From the IMG/VR virus record IMGVR_UViG_3300025405_000009, positions 1-64,000 of that record: 64,000 nucleotides of DNA, one strand, 5' to 3'. Made by a program: the position numbers and the translations under genes. The notes beneath the pieces are model-generated. The model worked only from the letters and a program-made list of their open reading frames with translations. It was not told where the DNA came from and did no database searches. This DNA comes from a virus. This document shows, piece by piece, positions 1 to 10,221 of the stretch (positions within the stretch are counted from its first letter, which is position 1; the number at the start of each line of letters is the position of its first letter).

Positions 1-13
1 TTATACTGAATGT

Positions 14-223
14 ATGAAAAATAAAGCAACCCTAAAGTCCGACGGCTGGTATATTATCTTTGTTAATGGTGAGGAGCAAGAGCTTCATCTAGCAGCTAAT
101 ACTAATCTTTTCATCTTCGATAAAGAGCATGATGGAGAGGGACATGTTGATATGTATCATTGTGAATCTGATGAATTTCAAGGCTCTATTTCACTTGAGC
201 CCGATCAGCTAATTCTTGCTTGA
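14..223 (+). CDS. hypothetical early protein (cassette)
   Basis: 69 aa, starts MKNK, preceded by -10 box TATACT; stop TGA overlaps next -35. Confidence 0.8.
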   Translation: MKNKATLKSDGWYIIFVNGEEQELHLAANTNLFIFDKEHDGEGHVDMYHCESDEFQGSISLEPDQLILA

Positions 224-254
224 AATTCCTTTTTGATTCCTTTATACTAATAGT

Positions 255-476
255 ATGAAAAATAAGATCGAAGATTGGTATCATAATACAAGCCGTCATG
301 ATAAGGTTGAGTACCTTAAGGAGACAACTGGAGCATGGTTTGATGAGCACTTCATTCACGAGCTGGTTACTTGGATAGGAGAGGATTCCTTCAATGAATT
401 CTTTAAGAATCAGCTAGTCCGTTATTGGGAGCTTAAGCCTGAGCCTGAGCTAATCGCTGAGATGATTGGAGAATAA
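255..476 (+). CDS. hypothetical early protein (cassette)
   Basis: 73 aa, MKNK start, promoter repeat upstream. Confidence 0.8.
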   Translation: MKNKIEDWYHNTSRHDKVEYLKETTGAWFDEHFIHELVTWIGEDSFNEFFKNQLVRYWELKPEPELIAEMIGE

Positions 477-513
477 GCTTGAAATCAAATAAGAATTCCA
501 ATATACTAATAGT

Positions 514-780
514 ATGAAAATTAACGGATACAAGAAAGAGTTCATGAAGGTTGTAACCTACCGCATTGAAGATGTTCCCGAAATAGGAACAGTTATGTAC
601 TCAGATTACTACGATGATAATGATAAGATTGTAGATTCAGTAATAAGAACAGAAGATGGACACCTTCTGTTCAGAACAGACGATGGATATGCGGGGCTTA
701 CAATAGAGGTACCATCAGTCCTAAAGGATATTCAGAACTTTATTGGTACAGAGTTTAATGCAGTTACAACATCGGTTTAA
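514..780 (+). CDS. hypothetical early protein (cassette)
   Basis: 88 aa, MKI start, promoter repeat upstream. Confidence 0.8.
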   Translation: MKINGYKKEFMKVVTYRIEDVPEIGTVMYSDYYDDNDKIVDSVIRTEDGHLLFRTDDGYAGLTIEVPSVLKDIQNFIGTEFNAVTTSV

Positions 781-821
781 GGCTTGCAGTTCAGACTATA
801 ACACTATAACATATAGACATA

Positions 822-1022
822 ATGAAAATCACAATCGATATTGATAACGGAGAGATTAGTTCAATCATTGATACGTTAAAGGATCAGGGAATTGATGTAA
901 CAATGTTCGATGTACAAGAGGCTTTAGAAGAGTACTTTCATGGAGTAATTGAGGACTTTGAAGAGTCTAGAATGGATACTGTTATTGATATGTTAATTGA
1001 TAGTGCTGATGTTCAGGAGTAG
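822..1022 (+). CDS. hypothetical acidic early protein (cassette)
   Basis: 66 aa, very D/E-rich, degenerate promoter copy upstream. Confidence 0.75.
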   Translation: MKITIDIDNGEISSIIDTLKDQGIDVTMFDVQEALEEYFHGVIEDFEESRMDTVIDMLIDSADVQE

Positions 1023-1026
1023 ATGA

Positions 1027-1045
1027 TCTATCTATCATAGATAGA
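1027..1045. terminator. Short hairpin between early gene and late gene
   Basis: TCTATCTA-tca-TAGATAGA 8-bp inverted repeat; no clear U-tract. Confidence 0.35.
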
Positions 1046-1083
1046 AGGACAAATAGATATCAATTTGAATAAGTATATTGGTA

Positions 1084-1548
1084 ATGCAAAATGATGCTCA
1101 TCTTATTTCCGAAACTTATGAACAGGTTATGATAAATGAAAGTATTGTTCCTTTTATTCCTTTAATTCTCAATCAACTCAATAACCTTCATACAACATAT
1201 AGTTCTTCTACAGGAGGTGGAACAGTTGATCCTAAAGAAGCTGTAGCTATTATTACTGCTTGTATTACTTTGATTACTCTTTCCTTAGGTGGATTTACAG
1301 CTGTATTTCTTGGAAAAGATATCGTGAATGCTATTAAAACGGCTCGTCATTGGATCCTTTCAAAGGTTACTTCTATTGATGTTAATGAGTTAGAGGAAGC
1401 AGCTAGTAAGGCAAAAGCTATTCTTAAAAATCCTTCTGAGAAGGGACAGATTACAACTTGGGTCAATAGGTTAAAAGCTGCATCTGATAAAAAAGATAGC
1501 GCTGGAATGCATAAAGCTTTTGAACACCTAACAGAACTAGTTAAGTAG
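1084..1548 (+). CDS. late protein with D-x-x-L-I-x-E-x-Y N-terminal motif and one TM segment
   Basis: ATG at 1084 (MQNDAHLISETY) after TAAGTA late-type box; hydrophobic stretch AVAIITACITLITLSLGGFTAVFLG. Confidence 0.7.
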   Translation: MQNDAHLISETYEQVMINESIVPFIPLILNQLNNLHTTYSSSTGGGTVDPKEAVAIITACITLITLSLGGFTAVFLGKDIVNAIKTARHWILSKVTSIDVNELEEAASKAKAILKNPSEKGQITTWVNRLKAASDKKDSAGMHKAFEHLTELVK

Positions 1549-1552
1549 AAGG

Positions 1553-1786
1553 TTAGGCCTCTTCCATACTAACAACCTTACCATTTAAGATCTGAAAGTA
1601 ATAAGGTTGTTTACCTGTCTCTATCTTAGTACTGTCAATGGATTGGGACAATTGGAGCTTTAAGGGTGTGTCATAAGGCCTATTGACTAGTATAGAATTA
1701 GAATCAACCTTAAGGACAACAAAAGGTCCTAGTGTATTATTAGTGATAGACTCTAGTATAGACTCAACTAAATGATTAAAAGACAT
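1553..1786 (-). CDS. hypothetical late protein
   Basis: 77 aa, TAAATA upstream on minus strand, N-terminus MSFNHLVESILES. Confidence 0.7.
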   Translation of the reverse strand: MSFNHLVESILESITNNTLGPFVVLKVDSNSILVNRPYDTPLKLQLSQSIDSTKIETGKQPYYFQILNGKVVSMEEA

Positions 1787-2221
1787 AGATAGATAGAAGT
1801 ATTTAAGATAAAAAACATATAGTCTAAAAGAAAAAAGTATATGAATTAAAAGAAAAGTACTATAGATAGGATGATCCTATAAGGAGTGATAGGTTATTAC
1901 TATAGTATAGATATATAGTTTTGAACAACGATTAGCCCCGTTTAGTTATTAAAAGCGGGCGGATTCTCCAGCCCCCCCATAGGCTATACTCACTCTACTA
2001 ATAGTCTAGAACTGTTAGAAATATAGAAATGAAAGGAAATAACTATACATGGGGTAGAATGATAGGAAGAACCTATCTATATAGAGAAAAGGTATGGAAT
2101 AGAAGGATGGGAATGTATAAACATAAGTCGATCCCAGCTCCCAAAGTTCCTAAACTGCAACATCTAGGCAAGAAACGGTTTTTTCTTGCATATTCCCCCG
2201 AATTCCTGTATAATCTCTTTA

Positions 2222-2437
2222 ATGAATAAGAAACCACCGAATTATTACGATTGCTTTATTGACTCCCTGCTTCAGCTTCCGCCGAAAGTCCGGAATGCTG
2301 TGCTTCGGGCAGCTAGTACCGTATCTACGGATGGTAACCCCTATCTTTATCTATGGAATTGTTACTCCGATATGGATAACGCTACGGGTAACTACATTAA
2401 AGAACTCTTTGATGAGTACAATCTAGCCCTAGACTAA
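2222..2437 (+). CDS. hypothetical early protein
   Basis: TTGCAT(2186)-17-TATAAT-7-ATG(2222); true start is probably MNKKPP, not the TTG at 2186. Confidence 0.7.
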   Translation: MNKKPPNYYDCFIDSLLQLPPKVRNAVLRAASTVSTDGNPYLYLWNCYSDMDNATGNYIKELFDEYNLALD

Positions 2438-2649
2438 CATATGAGAAAGTTTTTAACTAACCCATATAAGTTCTTCCTATATAAACTAGGATATGAACTA
2501 AGAGAAAACAGACCAATTTTTGACTACCTAACTCGATTTACTCATTCATCTTATTTCGAAGATAGGATGAATAATAATGACTTAGATCGGTTCGAATATC
2601 GTTTATTTTCTATATATTAGTATCTAGGTACTTCTGGAAGTATCAAGCT

Positions 2650-2678
2650 AAAAATTCGGAACCACTAACTCCTCCGAA
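2650..2678 (-). terminator. intrinsic terminator of putative ncRNA
   Basis: UUCGGAG-10 nt-UUCCGAA followed by UUUUU on minus strand. Confidence 0.6.
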
Positions 2679-2895
2679 AATGAAGTGAAGGGGGCTTGAA
2701 CTAAGATATGAGGATGACGTGAGTCAATCGGAGTACTCCCAGCTAACTAACATACATTCGTCTTACCGAACTAGCGAGCTGTTTTTAACCTGGACCCTGC
2801 TCAACGTCCCTTCTCTTATTATCCATTCATTATAGTGGCTCAGACTGGAACCTGCAATAGGAATCTGAATTACTTTCCCGAGGGATCAGAGGTCC
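2650..2895 (-). ncRNA. putative ~245-nt structured non-coding RNA
   Basis: Promoter TTGACG-17-TATAAT at 2930-2902 (minus), multiple nested helices with G-U pairs favouring the minus strand, no ORF, hairpin plus U5 at 2678-2650. Confidence 0.65.
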
Positions 2896-2901
2896 AGTCT
2901 T

Positions 2902-2930
2902 ATTATATGAAAAATCCCCGGGGACGTCAA
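2902..2930 (-). promoter_or_regulatory. sigma70 promoter divergent from the cassette array
   Basis: minus strand TTGACG-tccccggggatttttca-TATAAT. Confidence 0.85.
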
Positions 2931-2980
2931 GCTTAAAATTCAGGCTTGAAGTCCTTTATGAATTCCCTTATACTAATAGT

Positions 2981-3130
2981 ATGAAAAATAAGTACAACAT
3001 AACAAACGAAATCGAGCGCTTCAAAAAGTTCATGAATTGGTGTGAGGAGAACTTTGATAACCTTTCCGAGAAGGAACAAGACGAGATTTGTAACATTAAA
3101 AACGATCCAGACGAAATTTTTAACTGGTAA
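2981..3130 (+). CDS. hypothetical early protein, paralog of 4940..5107 (not in ORF track)
   Basis: 49 aa MKNKYNITNEIERFKKFMNWCEENFDNLSEKEQ...; promoter repeat upstream. Confidence 0.8.
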   Translation: MKNKYNITNEIERFKKFMNWCEENFDNLSEKEQDEICNIKNDPDEIFNW

Positions 3131-3159
3131 TTCCTTCCAAATTCCTTTATACTAATAGT

Positions 3160-3312
3160 ATGAAAATTGAAATACCTGATACAACGATCGAAGCCCTCAA
3201 AAATGCTCTTCAAAAAGAGCATAACATGGAAGTTAGTCAACAAGATCTTGAACGAAAGATTAACGACTTAATTTCTGATTGGGTTAGTGATCTAGAAGTC
3301 TGGGAAGATTAA
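3160..3312 (+). CDS. hypothetical early protein, paralog of 5145..5294 (not in ORF track)
   Basis: 50 aa MKIEIPDTTIEALKNALQKEHN... Confidence 0.8.
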   Translation: MKIEIPDTTIEALKNALQKEHNMEVSQQDLERKINDLISDWVSDLEVWED

Positions 3313-3349
3313 GCTTGAAGTTCCAACCAAATTCCAATATACTGAATAT

Positions 3350-3730
3350 ATGAAAAATAAGAACTATAAAGGTGTAGAAATTTATACAGGTTATAATGAG
3401 ATGTCTTTTTGTAATAAAGATGGAGACATTAGGACTTGGGTTAGTGATAAGAATGTTGGTGATTTAGGTAAACAAATTAGTAAAGAGTTAACTACTGAAT
3501 GTTATGAGTGGTTGTTAAAGGATGATGAAGAGATGACTAAAGAGACTGCTTTAGAGTATGCTAGTGAGTGGACTGATTATGTTAATGTAGTTAACGAGAA
3601 TGAAGTTTGTGTAGGTTTTAGTGAAGAGAGTATGTATTTTATTGTAAGTGAGGATAGTGAATGGTATAATAAATTGGATAAAGAAAGTGAAGAGTTAGCT
3701 GAGTACTTACAGGAGATTGATTTTGATTAA
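3350..3730 (+). CDS. hypothetical acidic early protein (cassette)
   Basis: 126 aa, MKNK start, promoter repeat. Confidence 0.8.
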   Translation: MKNKNYKGVEIYTGYNEMSFCNKDGDIRTWVSDKNVGDLGKQISKELTTECYEWLLKDDEEMTKETALEYASEWTDYVNVVNENEVCVGFSEESMYFIVSEDSEWYNKLDKESEELAEYLQEIDFD

Positions 3731-3767
3731 GCTTGAAGTTCCTTTCAAATTCCAATATACTAATAGT

Positions 3768-3950
3768 ATGAAAATAAAAGAACTAATCGAACATCTCAAC
3801 AAATTCAATCCTGAAGCTGACATCCATATGTGTGATGTGGAGTCAGAGGCTAAACTCGCTTTTTATGATATTGCTGAAGCTGAAGATGTAAAGAATACAG
3901 TTATGATTATTGTTGAGACTGATTACGATGATGAAGATGACGGAGATTAA
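3768..3950 (+). CDS. hypothetical early protein (cassette)
   Basis: Start moved to MKIKELIEHL (3768) because the upstream extension is the promoter repeat. Confidence 0.8.
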   Translation: MKIKELIEHLNKFNPEADIHMCDVESEAKLAFYDIAEAEDVKNTVMIIVETDYDDEDDGD

Positions 3951-3987
3951 GCTTGCAGTTCCAATCAAATTCTAATATACTAATAGT

Positions 3988-4203
3988 ATGAAAAATAAAG
4001 AACCACTAAACGAGAAAATCCAAAATCAAGTCACCTACCTTCCTATTCCTAAAGGAGTAGATATTGATGTAGTAGCTGAGATTATTGCTGACGATCAATA
4101 CGATCTCATCTTCCTGAAGGATGGTATATTGTGTAAGAATGATAGGGTTAAGGATGTAAAGGGAACTATTAGTGAGGCTCAAGAAGACTCTGACGAAGAA
4201 TAG
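3988..4203 (+). CDS. hypothetical early protein (cassette)
   Basis: 71 aa, MKNK start. Confidence 0.8.
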   Translation: MKNKEPLNEKIQNQVTYLPIPKGVDIDVVAEIIADDQYDLIFLKDGILCKNDRVKDVKGTISEAQEDSDEE

Positions 4204-4205
4204 AC

Positions 4206-4240
4206 TTGACATTTCCTTATAACCAAGCCATAATAATAGT
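4206..4240 (+). promoter_or_regulatory. Near-consensus sigma70 early promoter (representative copy)
   Basis: TTGACA-17 nt-CATAAT-6 nt-ATG(4241). Confidence 0.9.
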
Positions 4241-4447
4241 ATGAAAAATAAGAACAACGACCAGGAGATTAAGCACTACATTGAAGTTGATAGGTATGAA
4301 GGTACAGTTAGGATCTTGGATCTAACTAATGAAAATGAGGTAGAGAACCTTGAGTACTTCAAAGAGAATGGAGAGAAGTCTGTAGGAGAAGGTGGGTACA
4401 TTACTTGGGATGGTGAGGAGTCAATGATCATTCAAGTTCCTGCTTGA
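4241..4447 (+). CDS. hypothetical early protein (cassette)
   Basis: 68 aa, MKNKNN start. Confidence 0.8.
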   Translation: MKNKNNDQEIKHYIEVDRYEGTVRILDLTNENEVENLEYFKENGEKSVGEGGYITWDGEESMIIQVPA

Positions 4448-4516
4448 CCTTCCTTTAAAATTCAATCATAATAGAAGAGTAGAATAAGTCAACCAACAAC
4501 AACAACAAAAAACAAC

Positions 4517-4825
4517 ATGTCAACAGCAACTAAAACACCAACCGACGTTATCGACTATCTCGTAAGTTATTTCGAGACTTTTGGTAACCTTCCTACGCCA
4601 GTTATCGAATGTCAGGTATCAGGTACTGCCTATACTGCCTTTGGTACTAACCTCAAGAATAAGATTGAGAAGGCTGGAGGTATTAAGAATCTTCTTACGA
4701 CCTTCACTGGAAAGGGAGTAGTTAAGAAGAAGGAAGTTAAGTCTGAGACTAACATCGAAGCTCGACCTAAAAAGAAGACAGTTAAGGTCCAGAAGAAGGT
4801 AGTTAACGCCGATTGTCCTTTCTAA
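4517..4825 (+). CDS. basic protein, paralog of 6576..6899
   Basis: Shared core FGNLPTPVIECQVSGTAYTAFGTNLK.KIEKAGGIK.LLTTFTGKGVVKK; Lys-rich tail; leadered transcript. Confidence 0.85.
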   Translation: MSTATKTPTDVIDYLVSYFETFGNLPTPVIECQVSGTAYTAFGTNLKNKIEKAGGIKNLLTTFTGKGVVKKKEVKSETNIEARPKKKTVKVQKKVVNADCPF

Positions 4826-4847
4826 AAGAATAGCTCGGTAAAGGGAT

Positions 4848-4894
4848 AAGGAGGTGGAGGCGTTAATATGGGCCTTCACCTCTAAACCTTTTTT
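4848..4894 (+). terminator. intrinsic terminator
   Basis: GAGGTGGAGGC/GCCTTCACCTC 11-bp stem followed by taaacctttttt. Confidence 0.7.
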
Positions 4895-4939
4895 AAGAAT
4901 AGACTTGTAATTCCTTTCAAATTCCATTATCATAATAGT

Positions 4940-5107
4940 ATGAAAAATAAGAACACCGAAAAAGCCAAATACAACGTCGATACTGAGATTGAAAGGTTCG
5001 AGGACTTTATTAGTTGGGCTCAAGAGAACTTTGAAAAGCTCTCGAAAAAGAATCAATGTAAACTTGAAAACTTTTCTTACTCCGTTCAAGATACAGTCTC
5101 GTTTTAA
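4940..5107 (+). CDS. hypothetical early protein, paralog of 2981..3130 (not in ORF track)
   Basis: 55 aa, shares EIERF..F..W..ENF..LS.K.Q. Confidence 0.8.
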   Translation: MKNKNTEKAKYNVDTEIERFEDFISWAQENFEKLSKKNQCKLENFSYSVQDTVSF

Positions 5108-5144
5108 GCTTGAATGTTCCTTCTAATCCAGCCATAATAATAGT

Positions 5145-5294
5145 ATGAAAATTGAAATACCCGATACAACGATCCAAGCCCTCAAAAATGCTCTTCTTGA
5201 AGATCATAATAAGGAAGTTAATTTGACAGATCTTGAATACAAAATTAACGACCTAATTACTGAATGGGTAAGTGAGCTAGCTTGGCAAGATTAA
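5145..5294 (+). CDS. hypothetical early protein, paralog of 3160..3312 (not in ORF track)
   Basis: 49 aa MKIEIPDTTIQALKNALLEDHN... Confidence 0.8.
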   Translation: MKIEIPDTTIQALKNALLEDHNKEVNLTDLEYKINDLITEWVSELAWQD

Positions 5295-5331
5295 GCTTGA
5301 ACGTTCCTAATCATTCATTCATAATAATAGT

Positions 5332-5553
5332 ATGAAAAATAAGAACACCGAAACGATCGAACAATACGAAAACATTACTGGAGCTATCTACAAGAATCTA
5401 AAAGAGCTGAAGGAGTTGATGGCTACTAAAAATTACAAAAAGGCCCTGAAATGGGATCAGGAAGAGAATGATTGTGATAGTAATTTGCATGGTGAGTTTA
5501 GTTGCTTCATTCAAGATCTGACCGAGATTACTTACCTCATGGAGAAAGAATAA
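5332..5553 (+). CDS. hypothetical early protein (cassette)
   Basis: 73 aa, ends MEKE. Confidence 0.8.
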   Translation: MKNKNTETIEQYENITGAIYKNLKELKELMATKNYKKALKWDQEENDCDSNLHGEFSCFIQDLTEITYLMEKE

Positions 5554-5590
5554 GCTTGAAGTTCCTTCCAAATTCCTATATTATAAATTT

Positions 5591-5878
5591 ATGAAAAATA
5601 AAGTAACGTGTGGTGAAATGTCAGAATTAGTTGATGGTGCTTTGATAGATGTGAGTGATGATATTACACTTGATGATATGTATAGGATGTATGGAGATGA
5701 TTATAGTAAGGATATTATTGATATTTTATGGAAGGGTGTACTAAAGATTCGTGAAGGTGGTGGAATTGATAATCCTGATGAATATAAGATTTGTGATGAT
5801 GTTTACAATGAGTTAGAAGCTAAAGGCTTTGTTGAATGGCACCCTAGGGAAGCTCAAGCAGAAATGGAGAAAGAATAA
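5591..5878 (+). CDS. hypothetical early protein (cassette)
   Basis: 95 aa, ends MEKE. Confidence 0.8.
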   Translation: MKNKVTCGEMSELVDGALIDVSDDITLDDMYRMYGDDYSKDIIDILWKGVLKIREGGGIDNPDEYKICDDVYNELEAKGFVEWHPREAQAEMEKE

Positions 5879-5915
5879 GCTTGAAGTTCCTTCCAAATTC
5901 CCTTATACTAATAGT

Positions 5916-6128
5916 ATGAAAATTAAAACATCCAAAAAGCAAAAAGAACAATTCGCCCTTCTTATTAATGGAGAGCAATATGAAGTAGGGGATATTATGG
6001 AATGTCCTGTAGAAGGTAGTGAGGGTACGTTAGTTGGTATTGATGAGAATGAGTATCATTTTTATGCAGATGGAGAGGGATATTCACATCCTATTCCGGA
6101 TGATGTTGAGGTCATAAAATTGGCTTGA
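5916..6128 (+). CDS. hypothetical early protein (cassette)
   Basis: Start moved to MKIKTSKK (5916) directly after promoter repeat. Confidence 0.8.
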   Translation: MKIKTSKKQKEQFALLINGEQYEVGDIMECPVEGSEGTLVGIDENEYHFYADGEGYSHPIPDDVEVIKLA

Positions 6129-6159
6129 ACTTCCTTCTTAATTCCCTTATACTGATTGT

Positions 6160-6291
6160 ATGAAAATTAAGAAATGGACAGTCGAAATTAAAGAGGTCAA
6201 GGTTCGTCAACCCTTTGCCCCACTTACTAAGAAATTCAAGAACTTGAAAGCTTATAACAGAAAGCGGATGAAGCTTGCGTTCGCCGAATAG
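6160..6291 (+). CDS. small basic early protein (not in ORF track)
   Basis: 43 aa MKIKKWTVEIKEVKVRQPFAPLTKKFKNLKAYNRKRMKLAFAE; its 3' end encodes the next -35 box. Confidence 0.7.
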   Translation: MKIKKWTVEIKEVKVRQPFAPLTKKFKNLKAYNRKRMKLAFAE

Positions 6292-6309
6292 TTCCGTTAT
6301 ACTAATAGT

Positions 6310-6507
6310 ATGAAAAATATAAGAAAGCCGTTTACAGCCGGACAGGTTATGGACCAGATCATTGAATCTCTAACCGATCATGATGTAGGTTGGGTTAATG
6401 TTCATGAATCCAGTCCTGGATCTTCCCAGGCTGTAGTTAGTGTACAGTCCGTTCATGAAGAGATTTCCAATAAGAAATTCAGGATCATCGTTGTAGAAGA
6501 GGCTTGA
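6310..6507 (+). CDS. hypothetical early protein (cassette)
   Basis: 65 aa. Confidence 0.8.
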   Translation: MKNIRKPFTAGQVMDQIIESLTDHDVGWVNVHESSPGSSQAVVSVQSVHEEISNKKFRIIVVEEA

Positions 6508-6575
6508 AGTTCCAACGAATATTAATCATAATAGAAGAGTAGAATAAGTCAAACAACAACAAACACAAAACTAAA

Positions 6576-6899
6576 ATGAACAAAAACAACACGCCCGCTG
6601 AAGTGATCGAGTACCTAACTAACTATTACGAGACGTTCGGAAATCTCCCGACTCCTGTAATTGAGTGCCAAGTGAGTGGAACGGCGTATACGGCGTTCGG
6701 AACTAACTTGAAGGGTAAGATTGAGAAAGCGGGTGGAATTAAGGAGCTCCTTACTACCTTTACAGGTAAGGGAGTAGTGAAGAAGGCAGATGTTAAGAAG
6801 GAGGTAACGGCTACGATTACCCCTCGAAAGAAGACCACTAAGAAGGTCATTCACATCTCAGCTAACGACCTGGAAAAGAATCGAGTTAGTCTAGCCTAA
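6576..6899 (+). CDS. basic protein, paralog of 4517..4825
   Basis: See 4517; same upstream 29-nt block aatcataatagaagagtagaataagtcaa and CAA-rich leader. Confidence 0.85.
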   Translation: MNKNNTPAEVIEYLTNYYETFGNLPTPVIECQVSGTAYTAFGTNLKGKIEKAGGIKELLTTFTGKGVVKKADVKKEVTATITPRKKTTKKVIHISANDLEKNRVSLA

Positions 6900-6912
6900 C
6901 TCAATCAATTTT

Positions 6913-7010
6913 AGTCAAGAGCACATCTCTAGGTGAAGGATTAGGTAAGGCGGTCGGAAACGATCAAACCTCTAGCAACCTTAATAAACTAGGTAGGATG
7001 GCTCTTGACT
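6913..7010 (+). other. ~100-nt extended RNA hairpin in 3' UTR
   Basis: AGTCAAGAGC/GCTCTTGACT closing stem, inner helices CATC/GATG, ATTAGGT/ACCTTAAT, apical GTCG-GAAA-CGAT. Confidence 0.6.
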
Positions 7011-7056
7011 GAATAATTTTCTTGAAGTTCGAATTGAATTCCGTTATACTGATCGT

Positions 7057-7320
7057 ATGAAAAATAAGAACAACGAAGCAGTAACGACAATCGAATTCAA
7101 GCGCAGCCGTCATGGTGATCCCTTCGATCGCGGTTCAATGGATAGCTACTATCGCCGTAGCCGGAATCCTCATTACTTTGTCGGTGGTACTGGATGCAGT
7201 CCTCGTATTGAAGAGGCCCAGATGACCGAGCTTGAGGTGTTGGCCTATCATGCAGGGTTTGATTCGAACGAGAGGGAGGGAGACTATAAGGATTATGGAT
7301 GGGGGAATGGGCGGTATTAA
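7057..7320 (+). CDS. conserved phage hypothetical protein (RHG.PFDRGS.DSYY.R motif)
   Basis: 87 aa; motif recalled from other T4-like phage hypotheticals. Confidence 0.8.
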   Translation: MKNKNNEAVTTIEFKRSRHGDPFDRGSMDSYYRRSRNPHYFVGGTGCSPRIEEAQMTELEVLAYHAGFDSNEREGDYKDYGWGNGRY

Positions 7321-7358
7321 GCCTTGAACTTCCAACCAGAATCCCTTATACTGATCGT

Positions 7359-7619
7359 ATGAAAAATAAGAACAACGTCGGAGCACTGAAGTGGGGCAAG
7401 AAGGTCATGATCGAGAGCGGAAGCTCGGCCTGGTATGATCACTCTTATTATAGTGTGCCTTTTGTTGGCACTCTTGACGTTAGTAAGATGCGATCGGCTC
7501 TGTCAAAGAGGTATCCTAACACCGGTAATTACTTCGGAGGGTATACCACGGTTGGTGACATTTCACTTCTTAATGATGGGCATGTTAAGGTAGAGCTCAT
7601 TCACCATATAGGGAATTGA
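7359..7619 (+). CDS. hypothetical early protein (cassette)
   Basis: Start moved to MKNKNNVG (7359). Confidence 0.8.
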   Translation: MKNKNNVGALKWGKKVMIESGSSAWYDHSYYSVPFVGTLDVSKMRSALSKRYPNTGNYFGGYTTVGDISLLNDGHVKVELIHHIGN

Positions 7620-7657
7620 TGCTTGTACTTCCAACTAGAATCCCTTATACTAATAGT

Positions 7658-7771
7658 ATGAAAATTAAAGAAATCGATTCACTAGTCGTCTTGATAGCTG
7701 TCCTATCCGTTATTGGTCTTACCTGTATCAGTCTTCTTGTCTATCTTGGCATTTACATTTACAACTATTAA
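7658..7771 (+). CDS. single-TM microprotein (not in ORF track)
   Basis: 37 aa MKIKEIDSLVVLIAVLSVIGLTCISLLVYLGIYIYNY with promoter repeat. Confidence 0.7.
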   Translation: MKIKEIDSLVVLIAVLSVIGLTCISLLVYLGIYIYNY

Positions 7772-7809
7772 GCCTTGAAGTTCCAATCAAAGTCCATTAT
7801 ACTGATAGT

Positions 7810-8067
7810 ATGAAAAATAAGAACAACGGAAAGAACACAAAAGTCGAAACCCTCAAAGAGCGCTATAAGGTCGGAGACGTCCTGAAGGTGATTGAGTCCT
7901 TTCAAGACGGAAGAGGCGGGACGGATAACATCACTCACTACATTACTATAACGAAAGTGAATAGGGTGACGGTAGAGGGTACCGAAGGTAAGGGTGGTGA
8001 GGTGATCTTAGATCTTCAGGATCTCTTCCACGCAAAGAAAGTCATTCAGAGGGAGATCCTTGCTTGA
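7810..8067 (+). CDS. hypothetical early protein (cassette)
   Basis: 85 aa. Confidence 0.8.
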   Translation: MKNKNNGKNTKVETLKERYKVGDVLKVIESFQDGRGGTDNITHYITITKVNRVTVEGTEGKGGEVILDLQDLFHAKKVIQREILA

Positions 8068-8098
8068 ACTTCCAATCAAATTCCCTTATACTAATAGT

Positions 8099-8338
8099 AT
8101 GAAAAATAAAGACAACGTAACAGTAAAGCAATTGACAGATAAGCTCACCGAACTATGTGCAGCTAAGTATCCTAATGATCGTTCGATGAAATGGGCTTAC
8201 GTTTGTGGAGTGTTAGAGGCGATGTTAGATTGGGAGGTTAAGGGATATGATAAGGGTATCAAGACTCTCCAAGAGAGAGTTAATGAGGCTTTTGAGAGGT
8301 ATGAAGAGGAGTTAGAGGCTGAATTAACAATTGCATAA
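8099..8338 (+). CDS. hypothetical early protein (cassette)
   Basis: Start moved to MKNKDNVT (8099). Confidence 0.8.
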   Translation: MKNKDNVTVKQLTDKLTELCAAKYPNDRSMKWAYVCGVLEAMLDWEVKGYDKGIKTLQERVNEAFERYEEELEAELTIA

Positions 8339-8366
8339 TTAAACAAATTCCATTACAATAATAACA

Positions 8367-8696
8367 ATGAATACGAAACTAATAATCGGAGCTATAATTG
8401 GACTCCTCTTTGTAAGCTCCATCAATTCTGCCCACGCCTATTATGGTGGTTATGGATATGGAGGTGGGTATTATAGGGGTGCTGGAGCTTGTGGATATGG
8501 ATATGGTGGATATGGTTATGGTGGTGGATATGGATATGGTTATGGAGGTGGATGGGGTAATGTTGGGACGTTGTTGGGTGTAGCAGCCATTGTTAGTGCC
8601 GCAACTCCTATTGTTACAACTGCCATTCAACAACCAGTTTACGTCCAACCCCAACAACAACAACAACCAGTAGTCTACATCATCAATTCTAAGTAA
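8367..8696 (+). CDS. Gly/Tyr-rich exported protein
   Basis: Signal peptide ending AHA, GYG repeats, hydrophobic segment, poly-Q tail. Confidence 0.75.
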   Translation: MNTKLIIGAIIGLLFVSSINSAHAYYGGYGYGGGYYRGAGACGYGYGGYGYGGGYGYGYGGGWGNVGTLLGVAAIVSAATPIVTTAIQQPVYVQPQQQQQPVVYIINSK

Positions 8697-8697
8697 T

Positions 8698-8811
8698 ATG
8701 AACCATCCCTTACTCCTTATCATACTCCTTATCATCGCTATTATTATCCTACCTCTACATACTATCTTACTAGCTGTATTGATTGCACTCCTTGTCAAAG
8801 CTCTTAACTAA
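8698..8811 (+). CDS. hydrophobic microprotein (not in ORF track)
   Basis: 37 aa MNHPLLLIILLIIAIIILPLHTILLAVLIALLVKALN. Confidence 0.5.
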   Translation: MNHPLLLIILLIIAIIILPLHTILLAVLIALLVKALN

Positions 8812-8818
8812 TTAACAT

Positions 8819-8992
8819 ATGAATACTCCTAAGCAATTAGTCCTAGACATAGAGAGGTTAAAGATGTTAAAGAGTCTGGATTGGGAGTGTAACTTCACCT
8901 CTTGGTATGATGGTGAGGTAGAGCTGTTATCTCAGACGTTAATAGGTGTTCTAAAACAATCACCTTCTTCTAGAACTGACATGGGTGTCTAG
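8819..8992 (+). CDS. hypothetical protein (not in ORF track)
   Basis: 57 aa MNTPKQLVLDIERLKMLKSLDWEC..., tight packing with previous ORF. Confidence 0.5.
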   Translation: MNTPKQLVLDIERLKMLKSLDWECNFTSWYDGEVELLSQTLIGVLKQSPSSRTDMGV

Positions 8993-9142
8993 AAAACGTG
9001 GGGTTATATAGAACAGGGTAGGGGAATTTCTAATAGGAGAAAAAAGTTAGTTAGGATCTATAGGCCCCATGCCAAAAAACTTGGTAAAATTTTTTTGCGA
9101 ATTTTTCCTAGAGTTTTCTATATAGGGGGGTTAAGTAGCCAT

Positions 9143-9253
9143 ATGAAGCTCAAATCTTTATTCTCCTTTAAAATTCTTAGTCGTCGTATTATCTGTCACA
9201 AAGATCAGGATTCCGGGAGTATTACTCTGTCAATCTTTAAGTCTACAAAGTAA
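9143..9253 (+). CDS. possible microprotein
   Basis: 36 aa MKLKSLFSFKIL..., stop abuts ATG of 9254, TAAGTA upstream. Confidence 0.4.
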   Translation: MKLKSLFSFKILSRRIICHKDQDSGSITLSIFKSTK

Positions 9254-9589
9254 ATGGCCTTTCTTATTTCCTGTATTGGGGCTGTACTGTGCTCCATTAT
9301 TATTACATTCATCTCTTATAGTGAGTCAATAAAGGATAGTCCGTTTAAGGCCTATATCTATGTAATCCTTGCTTCAGCTATTGCAGGCATTACCTGGTGT
9401 CAGCTAGCAAGAAGTACCAAGCACGAAGATCTCTTTACCATAAATCTTATCTGGGACGTGGGTATGACTATTCTCTATGTTCTAATGCCTGTTATCTTCT
9501 TTAACATTAAACTAGACTTTAAGGCTATCCTTGGTACAGTTATCTGTGTTATAGGTTTATTATTAGTTAAATTAGGAGAGGCTAAATAA
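9254..9589 (+). CDS. 4-TM SMR/EamA(DMT)-like membrane protein
   Basis: 111 aa, four hydrophobic helices, C-terminal LGTVICVIGLLLVK typical of DMT half-domains. Confidence 0.6.
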   Translation: MAFLISCIGAVLCSIIITFISYSESIKDSPFKAYIYVILASAIAGITWCQLARSTKHEDLFTINLIWDVGMTILYVLMPVIFFNIKLDFKAILGTVICVIGLLLVKLGEAK

Positions 9590-9603
9590 TAAATATTACT
9601 ATA

Positions 9604-9900
9604 ATGAACAACAATGATCAACACCTCGTATTCGAGGCTTATCTTAAGAAGGTAGTTTTAAAGGAGAATGCTGAAGAATGGTTTACTCCATTTCTTCAAG
9701 AATATAATAAAAATGATATTCTTAGTCATTACGTAGGTAAGGATCAGTCAGGTAAGGAGTTCGTAATCTGGCAAGTCTTACATACCGATTCACCAGATCC
9801 TATTAATCACCTAGTATATAGAGATAAAGGTCAAGATACAACAATTGAAGAGGATGAGTATGATAAGCTAGCATCCTTTGCAGTAGAGAATAATAAGTAA
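9604..9900 (+). CDS. late protein with D-x-x-L-x-F-E-A-Y N-terminal motif
   Basis: TAAATA upstream; MNNNDQHLVFEAY. Confidence 0.75.
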   Translation: MNNNDQHLVFEAYLKKVVLKENAEEWFTPFLQEYNKNDILSHYVGKDQSGKEFVIWQVLHTDSPDPINHLVYRDKGQDTTIEEDEYDKLASFAVENNK

Positions 9901-9939
9901 AAGCTTGCTTTCAGATTAATCCGACTCTATTATTAGGGT

Positions 9940-10221
9940 ATGATTAAATCCGAATTGTTCCAACAGAGTTATTGTATCTTTATTGAGTCAAGGTCAGCTT
10001 CTGCCTTTGCTTCTAGGGTTAAGGAATTAGGTAACCGGGCCGTTAAAGTATTGAAGGGTACCTTTGACAAGGCTCCTGCTGTCATAGTTATTCCAAATAG
10101 TCTGCCTATTAAGCAGATTGAGACCGATCTCTTTAAGTGGTCTTCTGAGAAGAATCTCGGTGGCTTCTGGGGACAGTTCGGTATGGGGTATCTAGGAAAG
10201 GAATGGGAGGTAGTATCTTAA
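9940..10221 (+). CDS. hypothetical early protein
   Basis: TTGCTT-17-TATTAT-6-ATG leaderless promoter. Confidence 0.75.
   Translation: MIKSELFQQSYCIFIESRSASAFASRVKELGNRAVKVLKGTFDKAPAVIVIPNSLPIKQIETDLFKWSSEKNLGGFWGQFGMGYLGKEWEVVS

Follow-up and report, generated by a model that had tools for sequence, protein, structure and literature searches.

Small genes in the early region of a distant T4-like phage are carried by putative leaderless promoter cassettes that appear to be exchanged at their repeats

We analysed the first 64 kb (64,000 nucleotides [nt]) of a single viral contig, IMG/VR record IMGVR_UViG_3300025405_000009, and refer to this whole stretch as the window. The contig measures 198,847 bp at 34% GC, is classed as linear in IMG/VR and has a completeness of 91% as estimated by CheckV. 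It encodes T4-type gp23, gp20, sheath and baseplate proteins, and its capsid and portal proteins (gp23 and gp20) share 30 to 35% identity with those of the nearest cultured phages, which are cyanophages and the Pelagibacter phage HTVC008M; judged by these genes, it is a distant, uncultured T4-like phage. Over the first 8.4 kb of the window, small open reading frames (ORFs) follow one another, almost every one of them joined to a copy of the same promoter element, which extends into the coding sequence. With a probability of roughly 0.7, we read this array as an early hyperplastic region made of leaderless promoter cassettes that are exchanged by homologous recombination at the repeats.

A search for the pattern TTGAAG-N17-TATACT-N6-ATGAAAA, allowing up to three mismatches, returned 18 matches in the window, all on the plus strand and between positions 220 and 8105, against an expectation of 0.12 from 100 shuffled sequences, among which the largest value was 2. 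When all 198,847 bp of the contig were scanned with a looser pattern, no member of the element family was found outside 1-8366. For the geometry counts, all gene starts across the array were aligned by hand. The canonical geometry (-10 box, 6 nt, ATGAAAA) is present in 21 genes (c01-c03, c08-c13, c15-c21 and c23-c27), a degenerate copy of the element precedes one more (c04, at 822), and four genes have a promoter of variant geometry, with an N7 spacing at 2222 and 8367 and a leader of ~45 nt at 4517 and 6576. The resulting total of 26 promoter-preceded genes agrees with the ~26 reported in a first-pass annotation made from the letters of the sequence, and the canonical copies together with the degenerate one account for its 22 cases of an element running into the start codon. 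The one-gene expression cassettes framed by repeats that the annotation described are indeed there, but the array is interrupted at 1023-2940 and cut at the contig start, and the repeat is ~57 bp long instead of the ~40 bp first given. The cassettes, with the two hairpins that lie among them, are as follows (all on the plus strand; relatives are denoted by G or L and a number, and identities are at the nucleotide level):

c01, 1-223, plus strand: -10 box TATACT at 2-7, element cut by the contig start; ORF 14-223, 69 amino acids (aa), MKNK; 91% identity to G001, L048 and L054, where a complete element precedes it
c02, 220-476, plus strand: element 220-269; ORF 255-476, 73 aa; the stop of c01 (TGA) falls within the -35 box (TTGAAA)
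c03, 479-780, plus strand: element 479-528; ORF 514-780, 88 aa, MKIN; 85-87% identity to G001 and L057
c04, 784-1022, plus strand: degenerate element with TTGCAG and without a clean -10 box at 6 nt; ORF 822-1022, 66 aa, MKIT; protein homologues in 5 contigs
c06-c07, variant cassette, 2186-2620, plus strand: TTGCAT-N17-TATAAT-N7-ATG before c06 (2222-2437, 71 aa)
c07, 2441-2620, plus strand: 59 aa, 3 nt after c06 and without a promoter of its own; the c06-c07 pair is kept in G001 and others
c08, 2946-3130, plus strand: ORF 2981-3130, 49 aa; paralogue of c15; 82% identity to G003 and L048
c09, 3125-3312, plus strand: TGGTAA in place of the -35 box, carrying the c08 stop; ORF 3160-3312, 50 aa, MKIE; paralogue of c16; 92% identity to L051
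c10, 3315-3730, plus strand: ORF 3350-3730, 126 aa, net charge -20
c11, 3733-3950, plus strand: ORF 3768-3950, 60 aa; 84% identity to L048
c12, 3953-4203, plus strand: ORF 3988-4203, 71 aa; 87-92.5% identity to L028, L068 and L058
c13, 4206-4447, plus strand: TTGACA-N17-CATAAT-N6-ATG; ORF 4241-4447, 68 aa
c14, leadered, 4444-4825, plus strand: TTGACC-N17-CATAAT and a ~45-nt CAA-rich leader without a Shine-Dalgarno (SD) site; ORF 4517-4825, 102 aa, basic tail; paralogue of c22, in the family most widespread in the arrays
GC-rich hairpin and T-run, 4850-4895, plus strand: fold z = -5.0; directly before the next promoter, a PeSL-like junction (see below); putative intrinsic terminator, kept after the c14 family in relatives
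c15, 4905-5107, plus strand: TTGTAA-N17-TATCAT-N6-ATG; ORF 4940-5107, 55 aa
c16, 5110-5294, plus strand: ORF 5145-5294, 49 aa
c17, 5297-5553, plus strand: ORF 5332-5553, 73 aa
c18, 5556-5878, plus strand: ORF 5591-5878, 95 aa
c19, 5881-6128, plus strand: ORF 5916-6128, 70 aa
c20, 6125-6291, plus strand: ORF 6160-6291, 43 aa, basic
c21, 6275-6507, plus strand: element overlaps the 3' end of c20; ORF 6310-6507, 65 aa
c22, leadered, 6504-6899, plus strand: TTGAAG-N17-CATAAT and a CAA-rich leader; ORF 6576-6899, 107 aa
Long hairpin followed by a T-run, 6910-7013, plus strand: fold z = -5.6; directly before the next promoter; putative terminator or structured 3' end
c23, 7022-7320, plus strand: ORF 7057-7320, 87 aa
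c24, 7324-7619, plus strand: ORF 7359-7619, 86 aa
c25, 7623-7771, plus strand: ORF 7658-7771, 37 aa, hydrophobic
c26, 7775-8067, plus strand: ORF 7810-8067, 85 aa
c27, 8064-8338, plus strand: ORF 8099-8338, 79 aa; usually the last canonical cassette in relatives too
Right-border variant, 8331-8696, plus strand: TTGCAT-N17-TACAAT-N7-ATG; ORF 8367-8696, 109 aa, signal-like N terminus, Gly/Tyr-rich repeat region

The repeat opens with the final one or two codons of the upstream gene and its stop and closes at codon 5 of the gene that follows, reading from ..GA(A/T)-TAA-GCTTGAAG through ATGAAAAATAAGAAC. Its parts follow in a fixed order: the upstream stop, a sigma-70-type -35 box, a partly conserved 17-nt spacer, the -10 box, 6 nt, and ATG-AAA-AAT-AAG-AAC. 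The upstream stop codon abuts or overlaps the -35 box, and the upstream end accordingly comes in two forms, either TAA-GCTTGAAG or GCT-TGA, the latter with the stop codon inside the -35 box. The same sigma-70-type consensus is obtained from 121 and from 332 copies in relatives, and conservation extends to spacer positions that are dispensable for recognition by sigma-70. Within the first codons, element-led ORFs use AAA 230 times and AAG 9 times at codon 2, and AAT 197 times and AAC not once at codon 3, while in the remainder of the same ORFs 71% of Lys codons are AAG and 48% of Asn codons are AAC. The conservation of the first codons is a constraint on the nucleotides and not on the peptide. 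The elements contain no stem-loop (mean fold z = -0.24 over 19 elements), and a consensus scan detected no terminators between cassettes; strong hairpins with a T-run are confined to two places, 4850-4895 behind c14 and 6910-7013 behind c22.

All canonical copies have 6 nt between the -10 box and the ATG, and TATACT starts 12 nt before the ATG in 21 copies of the window and in 332 copies of the family, with a nearly invariant T at -1 and A at +1. A promoter scan that was blind to the downstream sequence, run on the window and five relatives, also placed an ATG exactly 6 nt past the -10 box in most of the array-strand matches, for example, in 16/28 for G001 and 15/19 for G004. With the -10 box at -12 to -7 and this fixed gap, transcription is predicted to start at the A of the ATG, which would give leaderless messenger RNAs (mRNAs) with a 5'-terminal AUG, a consequence absent from the first-pass annotation. 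Leaderless genes have as their published signature a TANNNT box placed ~12 nt ahead of the start codon (PMC3160421); the element carries such a box and lacks an SD site. An SD-like 4-mer was found for just 17/173 ORFs, and upstream regions are A/T-rich and depleted in G, showing that this phage does without SD usage throughout its genome. Outside the array, a T4-late-like TAAATA ends 4 to 8 nt before the ATG in 40/255 predicted genes of the whole contig, compared with ~2 expected. Taken together with the early elements, this pattern near the ATGs of late genes indicates, at the level of sequence motifs, that start-proximal promoters are a genome-wide habit of this phage, and expression seems to be near-leaderless across the genome. 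In searches of the literature, we found leaderless promoter cassettes described for no T4-like phage. Most mRNAs of Flavobacterium johnsoniae, which serves as a model host without SD sites, are leadered (PMC6847099).

Arrays of the same kind are present in related contigs from uncultured phages. Among IMG/VR contigs, ~20 carry the exact core of the element, at 30 loci and in arrays of up to 17 copies, and a metagenome scan with c14 added 33 further loci. Copies with the exact geometry number 332 in 26 loci, belonging to ~25 related uncultured-phage contigs; for 25 contigs, 272 element-led ORFs fall into 109 protein families, 58 of which are singletons. The scan of the whole genome and of relatives proposed in the first-pass annotation thus confines the element to 1-8366 of the contig and finds its arrays in related contigs. 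The major capsid proteins of five relatives are 68 to 86% identical to that of the window, and the core and structural DNA of the relatives is collinear with the window at 70 to 75% nucleotide identity over kilobases. The array compares with the relatives in a different way: only single cassettes match, at 78 to 92% and in different contigs, in addition to elements of 30 to 70 nt at 80 to 100% identity. Neighboring cassettes of the window have their best matches in different contigs, often above the identity of the backbone (c01 in G001, 91%; c02 in G003, 78%; c09 in L051, 92%; c11 in L048, 84%; c12 in L058, 92.5%). Gene-order maps consist of conserved anchors with insertions, replacements and relocations between them, and a protein family has almost as many different downstream neighbors as it has occurrences, e.g., 8 in 12 or 7 in 7. 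The distance from a stop codon to the next ATG is quantized at 31 and 37-38 nt, and no gene remnants are left in between.

The ends of matching segments between different contigs point to the element as the place of exchange. Of these ends, 39% lie within -50 to +20 of an element ATG, a four-fold enrichment over the 10% found for random positions, with left ends peaking at the -10 box and right ends just past codon 5. The slot between c01 and c03 is found in three states: it holds c02 in the window and other cassettes in G001, and it is empty in L057. At the empty slot, L057 has a single element whose 5' half corresponds to the c02 promoter of the window and whose 3' half corresponds to the c03 promoter, which is the expected product of a crossover between flanking repeats, or of the reverse insertion. 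By these comparisons, related phages gain, lose, replace and relocate single cassettes at the module. The first-pass annotation had proposed such shuffling and had named identical gene content and order in relatives as the observation that would speak against it; content and order differ among the relatives, and both the breakpoints and the chimeric element map to the repeats.

We therefore propose the following working model. In the early hyperplastic region, each small ORF would be joined to one ~57-bp module, host RNA polymerase would start at the A of the ATG, and each cassette would yield a leaderless mRNA. Since there are no SD sites, a promoter set against every start codon would offer a route to strong early expression of each gene. 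The array is predicted from its promoter type to be expressed early, and transcripts would run on to the two hairpins behind the leadered genes c14 and c22, forming nested sets that end there. Crossovers between modules would be carried out by the phage's own homologous recombination system, of which a UvsX/RecA homologue is encoded at 74636-75448 of the contig, so that any exchange would deliver a gene already fitted with its promoter and start codon.

Several observations weigh against this model. As the intergenic space consists entirely of element, junctions located there could reflect selection for intact genes after recombination elsewhere, and for this reason the repeats are better described as probable recombination substrates, beyond being the sole permissible junction, than as proven ones. 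Elements resemble each other at 0.556 within genomes and 0.533 between genomes, a significant but tiny difference that makes concerted homogenization at most weak. We found no pair of near-identical strains that differ by one cassette: pairs of IMG/VR contigs are either duplicates at 100% identity or only ~78% identical, and none of the 33 metagenome loci retrieved with c14 is near-identical. The predicted start at the A of the ATG is drawn from promoter geometry, and the predicted early timing from promoter type. Finally, missing SD sites are typical of Bacteroidota or cyanobacteria, and the promoter type of Bacteroidota is TTG/TAnnTTTG; the phage lacks SD sites, yet its promoters are of the canonical sigma-70 type and not of the Bacteroidota type.

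Some of these points suit an account in which the repeats are expression signals kept alike by selection and the mosaic is the outcome of ordinary recombination, illegitimate or at gene flanks, after which selection retains intact genes, without the repeats serving as a recombination substrate. That the same consensus is shared by phages with a capsid identity of just 68%, and that similarity within genomes is barely above that between genomes, fits functional constraint; late genes, too, have start-set promoters without forming cassettes, and some blocks of homology between G002 and G003 fade inside genes. Selection on expression signals would not readily produce the chimeric element at the empty slot of L057, the strict quantization of the stop-to-ATG distances without gene remnants, the concentration of segment ends at elements or the conservation of spacer positions that sigma-70 does not need, and we give this account a real but minor chance.

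It is considerably less probable that the element is not a leaderless promoter at all, and that a few upstream promoters produce polycistronic RNA in which the block around the ATG acts as an SD-independent ribosome entry site or as the operator of a regulator. The phage-wide absence of SD sites means that SD-free internal initiation must work for many genes, and cassettes without terminators between them would suit a polycistronic message. On the other hand, both hexamers and the 17-nt spacing fit sigma-70 promoters in >300 copies, and the fixed gap of 6 nt puts the modal start position on the A of the ATG. As to the operator, a short palindrome, ATACT-AAT-AGTAT, does span the -10 box and the start codon, but it is not kept by compensating changes (where TATACT becomes CATAAT, GTATG stays the same), and we rejected the idea. 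A true site-specific system resembling an integron, in which an unrecognized recombinase acts on the repeat, would account for the uniform cassette boundaries; however, no tyrosine recombinase was found in the contig, the repeats have no attC-like folded structure, and every cassette has its own promoter in place of one shared Pc promoter, which leaves this the most improbable of the explanations. The absence of an integrase had been stated in the first-pass annotation and was borne out by the search for the tyrosine integrase family PF00589, which had no match in the 199-kb contig while its controls were positive.

Among known systems, the closest counterpart is the PeSL (promoter-early stem-loop), a module of ~100 bp made up of an upstream stop, an AT-rich tract, a sigma-70-like promoter, a stem-loop, an SD site and a start codon (PMC2839356). 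PeSLs are mobile regulatory cassettes found before ORFans in hyperplastic regions of the T4-type phages RB49/phi1, T4/PST and KVP40/nt-1, where they mediate insertions, deletions and replacements and form minicircles (Arbiol et al. 2010, PMC2839356; Comeau et al. 2014, PMC4122927). Like them, the elements described here are repeated intergenic modules that lead from an upstream stop through a strong sigma-70-like early promoter to a downstream start codon, and they precede the small ORFans of a T4-like hyperplastic region whose array is variable while the core is collinear. In both cases, indel and replacement junctions between relatives lie in the modules, and homologous recombination has been proposed. 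In contrast to PeSLs, there is no stem-loop or terminator at 22/24 junctions of the array, the hairpin-then-promoter layout being restricted to those after c14 and c22, and the element lacks an AT-rich upstream tract, an SD site and a leader, with its -10 box 6 nt from the ATG. Furthermore, the first five codons belong to the repeat, and the modules are shorter (~57 versus ~100 bp), far less variable and directly adjoining in the array; the clade itself is only 30 to 35% identical to cultured T4-like phages in gp23 and gp20. The lack of the PeSL stem-loop had been noted in the first-pass annotation, and the fold statistics agree; the inclusion of the start codon, which it took for a second difference, does not separate the two, as published PeSLs also reach the downstream start codon (PMC2839356). 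With two PeSL-defining features failing (the stem-loop, and the SD site with its leader), the elements are PeSL-like, but they are neither members of the PeSL family nor an integron.

The elements also resemble bacterial leaderless genes, such as lambda cI transcribed from PRM, in that SD sites are lacking and the -10 box is positioned for a predicted transcription start at the start codon (Zheng et al. 2011, PMC3160421). They differ from these in forming a repeated, portable module that precedes almost all early genes, with late genes apparently laid out in a similar way, and in that the start is predicted from sequence. Like integron gene cassettes, they form arrays in which single promoter-proximal ORFs have uniform boundaries and the content varies, whereas integrase, attC and attI are missing, each cassette has a promoter, and exchange would be homologous instead of site-specific. 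The label "integron-like" of the first-pass annotation therefore fits only loosely, as an integrase, an attC-type site and a promoter shared by all cassettes are lacking. In the host-takeover regions of SPO1-like phages, there are many small early genes, each with a strong promoter for the host polymerase, a leader and a strong SD site. The array agrees with them in the strong promoter owned by each small early gene and departs from them in that SPO1-like genes are leadered with an SD site. SPO1-like promoters are not known to serve as recombination modules.

If the proposed model is correct, modular shuffling at promoter repeats, known from a few cultured T4-type phages, would extend to a large uncultured clade, and in a stripped-down form in which a single stretch of 57 bp is both recombination module and complete expression signal. 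It would also point to leaderless translation as a routine strategy of phages in an SD-free host. More tentatively, and as an extension that we consider rather unlikely, the whole clade may run on leaderless or near-leaderless messages, early and late, and could shut down or out-compete leadered host translation; the array would then be a recombination-driven library whose crossover site is a complete expression signal (promoter, +1 and start codon), such that ORFs captured in exchanges between co-infecting phages would be expressed at once.

The proteins encoded by ORFs behind a canonical or degenerate element are 37 to 126 aa long, start with MKN or MKI and are mostly acidic. These sizes and starts had been reported in the first-pass annotation, which also called the proteins unrelated; this applies apart from three pairs of paralogues, c08/c15, c09/c16 and c14/c22. 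None of 30 proteins searched had a functional match in Pfam or PHROGs. For the c14/c22 family, a profile search of the PDB had no match, and the AlphaFold model, with a mean predicted local distance difference test (pLDDT) score of 57, was not good enough to search for related folds. In being mostly 40 to 130 aa long and acidic, the cassette proteins resemble the early ORFans of T4-type phages. By analogy with these ORFans, roles in host takeover or counter-defense are plausible for the cassette proteins, and the >100 families of small, mostly acidic early proteins constitute a defined pool for screens of such functions.

In some relatives, members of the c14/c22 family are led by an element (MKNK...) and have an Asn/Gln/Thr-rich N-terminal extension. 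The CAA-rich leader of ~45 nt before c14 and c22 (4444-4516 and 6504-6575) is homologous to this coding extension in L061 (3166-3576), L065 (1043-1468) and L069 (1293-1700), that is, the same stretch of DNA is a coding N terminus in some relatives and an untranslated leader in the phage of the window. Beside the arrays of L015 and L017 (IMG/VR 3300022602_000234 and 3300004807_001587), there are 16 and 6 consecutive ORF calls, respectively, of one protein cluster, representing either tandem copies of a gene or a single long repetitive gene that crude ORF calling has divided. Both contigs also carry elements on both strands.

On its left side, the array is cut: base 1 of the contig falls within an element, and c01 is homologous to relatives from exactly the -10 box onward. 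In G001, at least 10 further cassettes precede the c01 homologue, and the array probably continues past the left contig end. We considered joining the ends of the contig (198750-198847 to the window side, 1-13), which would fuse c01 in frame to the ORF at 198750, and rejected the join, the record being linear and 91% complete. No cultured relative was detected by megablast of 1-8400 and tblastn of c22 against 50,697 phage records. As a host clue, the element core was sought in 596 Gb of bacterial genomes, where it had a single stray match, in a Heyndrickxia contig; on this count, the element is specific to these phages. An Rfam search of 1-10000 gave nothing meaningful, and no transfer RNA genes were found in the 64-kb window.

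Two features within the interruption of the array lie outside the cassette system:

Non-cassette interruption, 1023-2185: ORF 1078-1548 (plus strand), ORF 1553-1786 (minus strand) and an ORF-poor part, 1790-2185; no element
Candidate non-coding RNA, 2650-2930, minus strand: promoter TTGACG-17-TATAAT at 2930-2902

The ORF-poor part of the interruption contains a stretch of 39 nt (1924-1962) that G001 shares at 97% identity, a value far higher than the local background. The minus-strand stretch at 2650-2930 is free of ORFs, has no match in Rfam and shows 73 to 80% nucleotide identity in L049, L050, L052 and L058, above that of its neighbors; the stretch probably represents a gene for a small RNA situated within the array. 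After the array, at 8367-8811, the 109-aa ORF of the right-border variant is accompanied by a very hydrophobic ORF of 37 aa.

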